Below, one piece after another: positions 12,602 to 15,510 of a stretch of DNA of 24,336 nucleotides; position 1 is the first letter of the stretch, and each line of letters opens with the position of its first letter. The translations under genes were made by a program, and so were the position numbers. Source of the stretch: a virus (taxonomy: Duplodnaviria; Heunggongvirae; Uroviricota; Caudoviricetes). Where the stretch lies: IMG/VR virus record IMGVR_UViG_2740892113_000002; one strand, given 5' to 3'. The notes under the pieces were generated by a model that saw only the letters and a program-made list of their open reading frames with translations, was not told where the DNA came from and made no database searches.

Positions 12602-12928
12602 TCATAACACCGTCGGACAACGCAAATCGTAAATCAGCACGGAAACAGAAAACGGCAGCTCCCCCTGAAGCAGTTCTTCCCGCTCCGCAAGATCCGGATT
12701 CCGGTACAGCATCCCGGTCAGTCGCATGGCAGCCCCCTTCATCCGGGTTAATGCCTCGCCCGGGATCAGTTCACCGTCCTCACGGATCACTTTATCCCGG
12801 CTGCCCTGAATGTAGGCCAGCAGCACGGCGGTAGCCTGACGAACCTTGTCCATCAGCATGTCATCATCCGCGTCATGGTCGACACGCAGATGTGCCTTGA
12901 TCTCTTCCAGTGTCAGTAATGCCGTCAT
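12602..12928 (-). CDS. gp6-like head-tail connector protein
   Basis: 108 aa. MTALLTLEEIKAHLRVDHDADDDMLMDKVRQATAVLLAYIQG is the characteristic N-terminus of gp6-like connector proteins. Stop overlaps the next start. Confidence 0.7.
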   Translation of the reverse strand: MTALLTLEEIKAHLRVDHDADDDMLMDKVRQATAVLLAYIQGSRDKVIREDGELIPGEALTRMKGAAMRLTGMLYRNPDLAEREELLQGELPFSVSVLIYDLRCPTVL

Positions 12929-15510
12929 TTTCCGCCTCCTGCATCCCGCCCACGTTTTGCAGCCAGGGTCCAGGCTGATGAATGAGCTTCTCCGGGTTTA
13001 TCTTCGGTCATACTGTTGCAGTGCCACAGCGAGCCCCCCCACGTCACCGTATCGCCGGGGTGGTAGGTTTCACCGGCTCTGAACACACCGCGGTAGAGCA
13101 TCACCGGCAGGGAAAATGTTTTTTCCGTACGCTGGCCACTGCTCTGCCGGACCACCACAGAGAACAACCGCTCACCCGTCATGCTGACGTCAATATCCGC
13201 CACCCCGTCAACCAGGCATTCCCATCCCCGCATCCCGTGCGTTTTTTCATACGCCCGCCAGAGTCCGCCCTGGTGTGTGGCATACGTGCCCCGGGGAAAG
13301 GATTTTTGATCGTCAATGGCGGGGAGTATTTCCAGAGCCGTGGCATCACGCCCGTCCTGCGGAGCCGGCAGGGCACTCACCGCATCCAGAACCGCCTTCT
13401 GCAGAACATCCGGATCGTAGTCACGACCATCACGCGGAACATGAATATGGCTTACCGCCTCCTTCACCATCTGTTCAAGCATCGGACGCACATCATCCGG
13501 GGTGAGACTTTTACCGTCTGCCGGCTGCGGAATATTTGCGACCGCATCATTCACCGCCTTCTGCAGAACATCGGGATCATAGTCACGACCGTCGCGCGGA
13601 ACAGGGATATGGCTTACAGCCTCCTTCACCATCTGTTCAAGCATCGGACGCACATCATCCGGGGTGAGACTTTTACCGTCCGCCGGCTGCGGAATATTTG
13701 CGACCGCATCATTCACCGCCTTCTGCAGTACTTCCGGATCGTAGTCACGACCATCACGCGGAACAGGGATATGGCTTACAGCCTCCTTCACCATCTGTTC
13801 AAGCATCGGACGCACATCATCCGGGGTGAGACTTTTACCGTCCGCCGGCTGCGGAATATTTGCGACCGCATCATTCACCGCCTGCTGCAGTACATCCGGA
13901 TCATAATCACGACCATCACGCGGTACCGGAATGGCCCCCACAGCGTCATCCACCATCGCCTGCAGAACCGGACGCACCTCATCCACCGTCACATGCTTCT
14001 GTAATACCGCCGACAGGGAAGTCAGTTTCTCTTCAAACGCTTGTGCCTGCGAGGCCATCTTCCCCTCAAATGTGCGCTGTAAATCCGCCAGCACTGTGGA
14101 GAATTCTTCTCCCAGTGCACGAATAATGGACAGTTCCCGTTCCGTCATTTTCTCAGTATCCCCCCTGAACATCGCTTTCACCGCATCATGCTCTGTTTCA
14201 CTGATTGCCTTATTACCGTCAGATGCGCCGTCAGGCAGCTGTGATGAAACTGTTTTCCCGGCAGACGCGAACGGATCCTCACGGGCATCACGACGGGACA
14301 GCGCCTCCAGACTGTAGTTCTGCTGCTGAAGATACAGTGCATCACCGCCGGCCAGGGGCGGCAGGTTCTCCCGTTTACGGGCCTCATTGGGCGTGAGAAG
14401 CGTATTTTTCACCGCATCCCCCAGCGTTTTCATGCGCCGCTCACTGTCCATTCTCAGCAGCGTGGTGACATCAAATTCTGTACTCTCGTTTTCCCCCGTT
14501 TCCAGCGCCTCATCCAGTAACAGTTCAATGGACTCAATCAGCGTCTGCAGGCACTGGGAATAATACTGCTGCTCCAGCGCCTCCACGTTGTCACTGGAAG
14601 GCGGTTGTCCCACGCCAATCTTGTAGGCCGGGACACGGAACACCGAACAGACAATTTCAGCGGTCATCTTCAGTTGTTCCACCGTCTGCGCATCCACAGG
14701 TGAAAACGTCGTGGGGTTGTATTTTGCCCCGTTGCTCAGAATGGCCGTTTTCCCCGCATTTTCGCCTGTATACCCGCTGTCCCAGTTGCTCTTCAGTTTT
14801 TTCGCATTTTCTTCCGTAATACTGCCGGGGATCTCAATCACCCCGGACGGCCTGCCGCCATTTCTGAAAAAAGACGTCGAATTTTCCTGAATATGATGCC
14901 CCTGCGTGGCCGCCAGCCCGGCGGCATACACCGGCGGCAATCCTATAAGCGGATGAAAAAAACAGTTAAACCGGTCGTGGATCACTTCCCGGGCAGGCAC
15001 CGTCACCGCCTCCGTGATCCCGCAGTTCCGGTCCGGCGTGATGCGGTAGAACACCTCGCCGTCATCCGCCACCAGAGGTTCAACCCGGCTCCAGTCCAGA
15101 ATACGCAGTTCTTTGATCTGCCCCCGGGCATTACGGATTTTCAGCACCACCGTATTGCCATGACGCAGTTTGGCGTTCAGCCACAGTTCAAAAAACTGGA
15201 TGCGGTTCTGCTGGGCGTTGGGACGACGACAGAGGCGGGCAATATCCCCCCGGCGCGTTTCCCTGCGTATCCCATGCGCATCCGTCTGCATAAGACGCAG
15301 CCGCATTTTGGCGATATCCTGGGATATCAGCGAAATACATGCAAACACCGCATGAAAGGAGAGGACGGCTTCAGGATCGGCTTTCACGCCCTGCTGCCAG
15401 GCGCCGGAAAAGGGCTCAGCCACCGCCTGAAACAGGCTGGTCCAGCCCGCCTCTCTTACGTCACGTCCTGATTTCTGGTTTTTTCGGGTTCGCCGTAAAA
15501 GGTTCCACAT
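12925..15510 (-). CDS. Portal protein (HK97 family) with a C-terminal extension of about 450 aa carrying tandem 54-aa repeats and a distal globular domain
   Basis: 861 aa. The N-terminal 400 aa carry portal signatures (AVFACISLISQDIAKM; GKTAILSNGAKYNPTTFSPVDAQTVEQLKMTAEIVCSVFRVPAYKIG; LTPNEARKRENLPPLAGGD). The C-terminal half has 3.5-4 near-identical 54-aa repeats (VPRDGRDYDPDVLQKAVNDAVANIPQPADGKSLTPDDVRPMLEQMVKEAVSHIP) then a W/G-rich domain. Confidence 0.8.
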   Translation of the reverse strand: MWNLLRRTRKNQKSGRDVREAGWTSLFQAVAEPFSGAWQQGVKADPEAVLSFHAVFACISLISQDIAKMRLRLMQTDAHGIRRETRRGDIARLCRRPNAQQNRIQFFELWLNAKLRHGNTVVLKIRNARGQIKELRILDWSRVEPLVADDGEVFYRITPDRNCGITEAVTVPAREVIHDRFNCFFHPLIGLPPVYAAGLAATQGHHIQENSTSFFRNGGRPSGVIEIPGSITEENAKKLKSNWDSGYTGENAGKTAILSNGAKYNPTTFSPVDAQTVEQLKMTAEIVCSVFRVPAYKIGVGQPPSSDNVEALEQQYYSQCLQTLIESIELLLDEALETGENESTEFDVTTLLRMDSERRMKTLGDAVKNTLLTPNEARKRENLPPLAGGDALYLQQQNYSLEALSRRDAREDPFASAGKTVSSQLPDGASDGNKAISETEHDAVKAMFRGDTEKMTERELSIIRALGEEFSTVLADLQRTFEGKMASQAQAFEEKLTSLSAVLQKHVTVDEVRPVLQAMVDDAVGAIPVPRDGRDYDPDVLQQAVNDAVANIPQPADGKSLTPDDVRPMLEQMVKEAVSHIPVPRDGRDYDPEVLQKAVNDAVANIPQPADGKSLTPDDVRPMLEQMVKEAVSHIPVPRDGRDYDPDVLQKAVNDAVANIPQPADGKSLTPDDVRPMLEQMVKEAVSHIHVPRDGRDYDPDVLQKAVLDAVSALPAPQDGRDATALEILPAIDDQKSFPRGTYATHQGGLWRAYEKTHGMRGWECLVDGVADIDVSMTGERLFSVVVRQSSGQRTEKTFSLPVMLYRGVFRAGETYHPGDTVTWGGSLWHCNSMTEDKPGEAHSSAWTLAAKRGRDAGGGK
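13340..14000. repeat. Tandem direct repeat, 162-bp unit, about 4 copies, near-identical, in-frame within the portal gene
   Basis: The CTGCAG landmark recurs at about 13399, 13561, 13723 and 13885 (period 162). Copies differ by only a few bases. Each unit is two diverged 27-aa half-repeats. Confidence 0.85.

Follow-up and report, generated by a model that had tools for sequence, protein, structure and literature searches.

The long portal gene of a lambdoid Escherichia coli prophage appears to be a frameshift fusion with a fibre-like neighbour

Results

The locus

The DNA analysed here, referred to as the window, is a 24,336-nucleotide (nt) stretch of a lambdoid Escherichia coli prophage (IMG/VR record IMGVR_UViG_2740892113_000002). 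The subject of this study is its minus-strand open reading frame (ORF) of 861 amino acids (aa), named as a phage portal protein in RefSeq. The original prediction, made from the letters and translations, took 12925-14300, the C-terminal half of this ORF, for a repeat-built extension of an HK97-family portal. The comparisons below instead show the ORF to be, at the level of sequence, an in-frame read-through fusion of an ordinary portal of about 454 aa with a 407-aa neighbour gene, entered via a run of six G residues (G6) where unfused alleles have five (G5).

On the minus strand, the ORF follows the small and large terminase genes, a 645-aa prohead-protease/major-capsid fusion and a 73-aa ORF. 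After it come the genes for the head-tail adaptor, head closure, gp10-like, gp17-like and major tail proteins, and onwards. The features that concern the fusion are these:

12925-15510, minus strand: fused ORF of 861 aa, RefSeq 'phage portal protein' WP_000267294.1
14145-15510, minus strand: extent of the portal gene in its ancestral form (1365 nt and 454 aa in G5 alleles, with the TGA at 14145-14147)
14365-15351, minus strand: Pfam Phage_portal domain
14160-14165, minus strand: G6 homopolymer run (G5 in split alleles), 17 nt before the portal stop
14146-14148, minus strand: ATG that encodes Met455 in the fusion; split alleles begin the downstream gene here, in an ATGA overlap with the stop of the portal
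12925-12928, minus strand: ATGA in which the stop of the fused ORF and the first codon of the head-tail adaptor gene (12602-12928) overlap

The N-terminal half is an HK97-type portal

The assignment of the N-terminal half to the HK97-family portals was borne out by profile searches. Residues 54-382 match Pfam Phage_portal (PF04860) with an E-value of 6e-81 and 272.6 bits, where the cut-off is 39.1, and residues 45-388 match TIGR01537 portal_HK97 at 349.4 bits (cut-off 112) along positions 2-343 of the 343-position model. Among solved structures the nearest are portals of 424-431 aa (9lbn, 8cez), which align to residues 43-420, and the HK97-type portal within the ORF extends over residues 45-420 or thereabouts. 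The ORF was also rightly noted to be about twice the normal size: portals in the G5 alleles and in all distant relatives measure 451-476 aa, and 861 aa lies outside the usual 400-460. The window protein therefore resembles the HK97-family portals (TIGR01537/PF04860; 8cez, 6tba, 9lbn) in its end-to-end alignment and in profile scores far above the cut-offs, but differs in having 407 extra residues that belong to another gene, and in an unusual gene order in which the protease-capsid gene precedes the portal.

One added G joins two genes

The window junction reads TTCAGGGGGGATACTGAGAAAATGACGG, which contains G6; in a junction alignment the split alleles have G5 at this place. In the G5 frame the portal ends ...AMFRGILRK, with a TGA that overlaps the ATG of a second gene (MTERELSIIRALGEEF...). 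With G6, the portal frame enters the register of the downstream gene, so that ILRK* is replaced by DTEK and reading continues as ...FRGDTEK-MTERELS..., open to the end of the second gene. The corresponding regions of phage 1717 and PPompW_699 have one base fewer and are annotated as genes of 1365 nt and 1224 nt with a 4-base overlap.

A pattern search and inspection of fetched loci found G6 alleles in JJ1887, 705R7, YYZ-2008, 2851, Sakai Sp12 (ECs_2248) and Sakai Sp6 (ECs_1544), and G5 alleles in 1717, PPompW_699, PPompW_132418 and Sakai Sp10, the last of these carrying the split form as ECs_1974 and ECs_1975. The 861-aa gene was found in 1246 of 5426 complete E. coli genomes and is present at 100% identity in many closed ST131 genomes; it shares 93-100% identity with genes of phages converting to Shiga toxin (Stx) types Stx1a, Stx2a and Stx2c (2851, YYZ-2008, 1717 and the PPompW group). 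Of the 1063 complete E. coli records that hold the junction, 747 contain the exact G6 form at least once, and many of the remaining records give only 80-bp (G5) matches. The ST131 genomes have a single copy of the junction, in the fused form.

The distribution of the two run lengths over sequence backgrounds indicates how the fusion came about (here and below, L and P numbers are our handles for loci and homologous proteins). An identical 240-nt flanking haplotype bears G5 in two loci (L040, L047) and G6 in others, including the window, JJ1887 and 705R7. At least two more haplotypes, clearly different from it, also bear G6 (L021/L022; L034/L068); these have G5 relatives, and the 47 junctions compared have G5 and G6 exclusively, neither G4 nor G7. 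The change in tract length is recurrent and independent, and since G6 stands on at least three backgrounds it has arisen repeatedly, by slippage at the G run. An initial reading from five phage genomes, in which a single G6 haplotype was spread by recombination, was rejected once the IMG/VR haplotypes had revealed this recurrence. YYZ-2008 is a recombinant, identical to the window across the junction and 1717-like from about 90 nt downstream of the ATG.

The gene of PPompW_132418 is also 2586 nt long, and its extra base was considered as a candidate for the G run; it proved to be a C5-to-C6 frameshift within the repeat region. The insertion (L012, minus strand) lies about 322 nt past the start codon of the second gene, in the first repeat unit, and frameshifts the fibre-like gene. 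The portal gene of this phage remains in the split G5 form, and the record carries the note 'frameshifted by insertion of 1bp'.

The split arrangement is likely ancestral

The portal and the repeat protein are separate in Sp10, 1717, PPompW, BP-4795, Salmonella phage FSL SP-016, a Rhizobium phage, and Pseudomonas and Variovorax prophages. In these split forms the portal has roughly 454 aa and the second protein 240-862 aa, with an ATG that usually overlaps the portal stop as ATGA. In SP-016 a 451-aa portal overlaps the following 347-aa ORF by 4 nt, Rhizobium phage RHph_X2_26 has two separate ORFs in the same synteny, and P. syringae and Variovorax prophages and two metagenome contigs likewise have separate genes in that order. 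This is the main departure from the original prediction: what had been taken for a portal extension is a gene in its own right in Salmonella, Rhizobium, Pseudomonas, Variovorax and metagenome relatives. The portal end of SP-016, AMIRGFLTK*, is homologous to the G5-frame end AMFRGILRK*, and the G5 frame is therefore the conserved one, with the two-gene state read as ancestral. There is no G run at the homologous place in SP-016 (AGAGGATTT), nor at the separated ORFs of the Rhizobium phage.

A census was made of 80 IMG/VR loci encoding a homologue of the second protein, 78 of which have enough upstream sequence. A portal homologue lies directly upstream in all 78. The two genes are separate in 61 loci, 55 with an exact ATGA overlap and six otherwise, and fused in the other 17, the window being of the fused kind with no stop before Met455. 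Every fused locus is of the E. coli type and has G6, and the 407 codons are still open in 15 of the 17. The position between portal and head-tail adaptor genes holds in the window, in seven further annotated or called contexts and in the 78 IMG/VR loci; the phages concerned are HK97-like siphophages whose genes run in the order terminase, protease and capsid (fused or separate), small ORF, portal. The ATGA overlap implies translational coupling of the portal and the second gene.

A published survey of the Sakai prophages rated portal and head functions as intact in Sp10 and defective in Sp6, Sp9 and Sp12; Sp10 was transferred to K-12, and Sp6 was too, with low efficiency (Asadulghani et al. 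2009, Table 1; PMC2669165). We infer that these ratings are linked to the G5 state of Sp10 and the G6 state of Sp6 and Sp12, the text of the paper giving no reason for 'defective'. The ratings match a native state of two genes. Some Stx-phage records take the opposite reading and label the split form a portal pseudogene.

The second gene belongs to a large family of portal-adjacent proteins

Residues 455-861 of the window ORF constitute a full-length member of a family that comprises 5609 clusters at E<=1e-3 and 630 at E<=1e-30 in a representative library clustered at 50% identity. Members typically have 250-550 aa; a Klebsiella homologue (P0294) is alignable over its whole 402 aa. The window protein matches phrog_1289 (E 4.8e-195), with phrog_8767 and phrog_16748 as fragment families, and E. 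coli members carry the precomputed Pfam accession PF28083. The build shared across the family is an N-terminal amphipathic helix, 1 to about 25 alternating half-repeats of 25 and 29 aa, and a conserved C-terminal domain of about 145 aa. All of these are found in the window protein, which has the helix, the IPxPxDGxD/helix repeats and the C-terminal sequence YPRGTYA..GGLWRA...GDTVTWGGSLWHC. Its parts are laid out as follows:

13996-14148, minus strand: N-terminal region (MTERELSIIRALGEEF...), helical by prediction and also conserved at the start of stand-alone homologues
13932 to about 13990, minus strand: degenerate half-unit upstream of the repeat units
13447-13932, minus strand: three complete 162-bp/54-aa units (residues 527-688), each made up of a 25-aa and a 29-aa half-repeat
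13372-13446, minus strand: partial fourth unit, its first 25 aa, from Tandem Repeats Finder and in-frame reading
12928-13371, minus strand: conserved β-rich, Trp/Gly-rich C-terminal domain, residues 714-861 (148 aa), with an AlphaFold2 predicted local distance difference test score (pLDDT) above 90 over most of its length
12958-13098, minus strand: CBM5/12-like sub-domain at the tip (GDTVTWGGSLWHC...)

The shaft is not of one type throughout the family. It is collagen-like (GKDGxNG...) in P0220, and P0128, P0139 and P0154 have collagen-like C-terminal tails. Among sixteen long representatives (613-1237 aa), a Pfam scan found no portal domain except in P0209, an independent 1237-aa portal fusion from another lineage, with an LPxPEPxPLPDI-type shaft. 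The window protein and 20 homologues gave no Pfam match to Phage_Mu_F or to any internal-protein family.

Stand-alone members that lack a portal domain are nonetheless named 'phage portal protein' in Variovorax, Pseudomonas and Pseudoduganella (among P0274, P0284, P0288, P0292 and P0294), a Klebsiella member is named 'gp6-like head-tail connector', and phrog_1289 itself is labelled 'portal protein'. Names of this kind appear to be errors passed on between records, the portal label on stand-alone members apparently coming from the fused E. coli allele; the window copy differs from these phrog_1289-type proteins in having no stop codon in front. A full-text literature search found no paper describing the protein, its repeats or the G run.

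In two metagenome loci (L010 4472-11456 and L011 5294-8186), fibre-like genes of 781 and 862 aa are not followed by a head-tail adaptor. The genes that follow are MptE-like (Maf-type), hexapeptide-transferase, methyltransferase, radical-SAM/SPASM and BNR-repeat genes, which might serve modification or glycosylation of the fibre.

The repeats are conserved and vary in number

Tandem Repeats Finder reports a period of 162, with 3.3 copies, 95% matches and a score of 968, at 13391-13923. The 54-aa repeats are thus real tandem units, although the count of about four that had been given was slightly generous, there being three complete units and a 25-aa partial one. Each half-repeat consists of an 'IPxPxDGxD' loop and one helix of 13-17 aa. 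The complete units are 93-96% identical, with pairwise differences of 7-11 in 162 nt and 1-2 in 54 aa, and 11 of the 13 variable sites fall within unit nt 1-49, nt 50-162 being nearly identical.

The near-identity of the units had been ascribed to recent expansion, a view that does not fit the substitutions. Differences between units are almost all synonymous (dS 0.15-0.34, dN/dS 0.02-0.11), and the 25+29-aa period is family-wide. These two observations together indicate that the repeats are old, under purifying selection and partly homogenised within each gene. Full units share 96-98% identity inside one protein; a comparison of the E. coli, Klebsiella P0294 and P0121 orthologues gives 35-69% for the units and 65-67% for the C-terminal domains.

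Copy number does vary between strains, in whole units, as had been foreseen. The repeat region measures 851, 689 or 527 bp among E. coli genomes, and phage genes occur in a 2424-bp as well as a 2586-bp form. E. coli-type modules have 353, 407, 461 or 569 aa when split and 807, 861, 915 or 1023 aa when fused, with 2-6 units in the IMG/VR contigs and 1-6 over all strains. Unequal recombination in the homogenised core of about 110 nt adds or removes whole units, changing the length of the shaft. Collapse or expansion of the repeats during assembly, which the original prediction had allowed for, is excluded by the agreement of 623 complete E. coli records, in which the 851-bp region shows 99% identity or more. 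Two fused E. coli alleles, P0287 (895 aa) and P0290 (890 aa), have out-of-register partial-unit insertions of 34 and 29 aa, respectively; each is known from one contig, and the insertions may be products of illegitimate recombination or assembly errors.

The C-terminal domain carries a CBM5/12-like tip

The distal Trp/Gly-rich domain is present as described beforehand, at residues 714-861. An AlphaFold2 model of residues 660-861, made with an alignment of 36 sequences, has a mean pLDDT of 83 and exceeds 90 across the C-terminal domain. In the monomer model the repeats form isolated helices of 13-17 aa joined by 12-residue loops. All models are of monomers; a single-sequence AlphaFold2 run on the 407 aa was uninformative (pLDDT 43).

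In the proposed profile search of the C-terminal end, CBM_5_12 was matched below the threshold (19.1 bits against 26.2); the model has a CBM5/12-like fold. In that model the tip sub-domain is predicted to be a small three-strand β fold with exposed aromatic residues, and the last 50 or so residues have the same fold and Trp/Gly motifs as the chitin-binding modules of ChiB (8yug) and ChiC (2d49). The same module is found within the phage fibres of Agrobacterium phage 7-7-1 (9rkv, E 3e-4), Pa193 gp47 (9b45), the Milano receptor-binding complex and the A-1(L) fibre. Structural neighbours in BFVD are collagen-repeat phage proteins, ChiC_BD proteins and tail fibres, and the family profile gives weak matches to chitinase chitin-binding domains and to the Anabaena contractile injection system protein All3316. 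Sequence and profile searches of the PDB with the C-terminal half returned weak CBM matches and, on grounds of composition, designed helical repeat proteins, and nothing else. Unlike CBM5/12 modules, the tip is preceded by a six-strand β sub-domain, which has no clear solved counterpart.

A G7 run at 13034-13040 (minus strand) encodes the Trp-Gly-Gly of the GDTVTWGGSLWHC motif. It is invariant in four aligned alleles and is a potential further slippage site.

Discussion

What the second gene may do

Judging from the alleles compared, the long portal is a recurrent frameshift fusion and not an evolved portal domain. We consider it probable that the full explanation combines this fusion of the portal and the second gene by an extra G with a role for the second gene product as an accessory fibre. 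For the product itself the fibre is our best guess. An accessory fibre for adhesion is suggested by the combination of a shaft that can be replaced by collagen-like sequence, extreme variability in length, and a lectin-like tip that tail fibres also have. It would comprise an N-terminal anchoring helix, a segmented helical shaft and a β-rich, CBM5/12-like tip, and the gene order of portal, fibre and adaptor suggests a place at the neck or portal vertex.

In all solved portals the C-terminus is known to face the capsid interior. The G6 allele would tether the N-terminus of the fibre to this end, inside the capsid, so that display would be lost or reduced, and one 95-kDa polypeptide would be made instead of a 50-kDa portal and a 44-kDa partner. 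Translation of the coupled downstream adaptor gene would be preserved. An exception to this sequestration would arise if Met455 were used also as an internal start; upstream of it the window has a weak GAG motif at 5 nt and the G run at 11 nt. Twelve added chains of 44 kDa amount, by estimate, to less than 1% of a T=7-sized capsid, and packaging need not suffer.

Several observations sit uneasily with a fibre. A carbohydrate-binding tip held inside the capsid makes the widespread and recurrent G6 allele awkward, and the frequent fusion to the inward-facing portal end in E. coli prophages is a puzzle: the module remains open in 15 of the 17 fused IMG/VR alleles, G6 is found in 747 of the 1063 junction records, and ST131 has the fused copy only. 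Phage 2851, which is fused, is presumably an infectious Stx2c phage. The ATGA coupling suggests a portal-like low stoichiometry, which would fit an internal partner as well as a neck fibre. The CBM_5_12 (PF02839) scores of the window protein (19.1 bits) and of P0121 (24.7 bits) both fall below the gathering cut-off of 26.2. Finally, we infer from sequence both that the product belongs to the virion and where it sits there.

The strongest competing explanation, which we regard as possible though unlikely, is that the product is an internal head protein of the portal crown, fused or free, to which the fusion is neutral. In prolate-headed phages it could form an axial core, gauge length or have a part in ejection. 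Such a protein would explain more naturally why G6 persists, with in-frame fusion to the portal C-terminus recurring and the ORF staying open. The established inward orientation of portal C-termini also suits it. The gene always comes next after that for the portal, in most cases with ATGA coupling, which suggests 1:1 synthesis, and a second portal fusion arose independently in another lineage with different repeats (P0209, 1237 aa). Supernatants of Sakai O157 contained long-tailed particles whose elongated heads measured 44 x 95 nm, attributed to lambdoid prophages other than Sp5, and Sp10 and Sp6 are named among the prophages with very similar morphogenetic genes (PMC2669165). These particles probably come from prophages with head genes of the present kind, and phages with this head module may be prolate.

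Set against an internal protein are the neighbours of the tip, which are extracellular chitin-binding modules and tail-fibre tips, and the collagen-like shafts or tails of P0220, P0154, P0128 and P0139. Lengths in the family run from about 240 to 862 aa and half-repeat counts from 1 to about 25, with differences also among E. coli phages whose capsid genes are near-identical; such variability in length is typical of external fibres and hard to square with a ruler. The lack of a Phage_Mu_F or internal-protein family match in the Pfam scan above points the same way, as does the published in silico rating of portal and head as 'defective' for two prophages with the fused form (PMC2669165).

A second alternative places the function in the G run itself, either as a switch, with heritable and reversible phase variation between G5 (free form) and G6 (portal-tethered form), or as a site of ribosomal or transcriptional slippage comparable to that of lambda gpG/gpGT, by which every allele would yield both products at a fixed ratio. 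G5 and G6 do occur on an identical haplotype, G6 on at least three backgrounds, and no other lengths are seen among the 47 junctions. The rare codon AUA follows the run in G5 alleles, and the prophages carry ileZ, argN and argO tRNA genes. A 121-nt segment beginning just before the run folds slightly better than shuffled sequences (z -1.94), but the stable predicted hairpin lies about 40 nt downstream, not at the usual 5-9 nt, and there is no X XXY YYZ heptamer. A run of 5-6 nt is short for a contingency locus, which usually has 7 or more, and sampling is dominated by a few clones (ST131, O157). The run is moreover absent from SP-016 and the Rhizobium phage, so the slippery site is not conserved, and programmed frameshifting was rejected as the main explanation on this ground. 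We regard a switch or slippage site as quite improbable.

That the long ORF stems from a homopolymer miscall or from collapsed or expanded repeats is hardly credible: such errors are common, and P0287 and P0290 have irregular insertions in single contigs, but the identical fused gene recurs in hundreds of independently closed genomes from different sequencing platforms, and the Sanger-era Sakai assembly holds both G5 (Sp10) and G6 (Sp6 and Sp12).

Comparison with known systems

T4 fibritin (gp wac) shares with the second gene product an N-terminal anchor, a shaft of short helical segments with loops and a small globular C-terminal domain, and its gene also lies beside neck or portal-vertex genes. 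It differs in its tip, which is a foldon and not CBM5/12-like, and a family-profile search of all PDB sequences gave no match to fibritin. The P22 portal barrel is, like the fused form, a C-terminal addition on a portal. In the window protein, however, no helical barrel carries on from the crown; between the two parts lie a low-complexity linker of about 30 aa and a separate start codon. SPP1 gp7 and other MuF-type proteins are encoded directly after the portal, as is the split form, but the present family differs in its lack of a Phage_Mu_F match. A genetic parallel is lambda stf, with a 1-nt frameshift in laboratory lambda: there too an accessory fibre gene has a single-base frameshift state that varies between functional phages, although in our case the frameshift fuses two genes and recurs at a homopolymer run.

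Significance

Recognition of the fusion corrects an annotation error that has spread to thousands of stand-alone proteins (in Pseudomonas, Variovorax, Klebsiella and metagenomes) and to PHROG 1289, all called 'portal protein'. It also brings into view a large family of about 5,600 clusters, with strict portal synteny and a fibre-like, lectin-tipped build, for which no experimental description was found. Natural G5 and G6 alleles occur in medically important prophages, namely the Stx1a and Stx2c phages of O157 and the ST131 prophage, which in some strains carries blaCTX-M-15. They amount to a ready-made experiment on the importance of the protein for virion assembly, adsorption and transduction. 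A bolder and rather doubtful proposal is that the protein is an unrecognised and very widespread component of the portal vertex in HK97-like siphophages, whether a neck or whisker fibre with a tip that binds glycans or a crown protein, with G5/G6 in E. coli phages as a recurrent toggle between a free form and one that is portal-tethered and encapsidated. If this were true, the toggle would alter surface properties of the virion and leave the coupled adaptor gene undisturbed.

Further observations on the prophage

The major capsid gene at 15722-17659 (minus strand) encodes a 645-aa fusion of an S78 prohead protease with an HK97-type capsid protein; it precedes the portal gene instead of following it. 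The order of protease-capsid before portal is also seen in P. syringae; Variovorax has protease and capsid as separate genes. This head-gene order co-occurs with a portal-adjacent fibre-like gene wherever the contig reached far enough upstream.

The ST131 strain JJ1887 carries the same prophage with ISEcp1-blaCTX-M-15-WbuC inserted in the tape-measure gene (L001 5743-8983; about 7908-7912 in the window). In the window the tape-measure gene is intact, without the ISEcp1-blaCTX-M-15 insertion. The alignment blocks of JJ1887 and the window overlap by 5 bp at the insertion, which is consistent with a target-site duplication.

In the major tail protein gene (10675-11391, minus strand), a C-terminal stretch (…GGTPPYKYAWKKDGQPVDG…AGKYTCVVTD…) resembles an Ig-like decoration domain, as read from the translation alone. 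A 27-bp tandem repeat of 2.0 copies with 85% matches lies at 19448-19501, within the small terminase gene.

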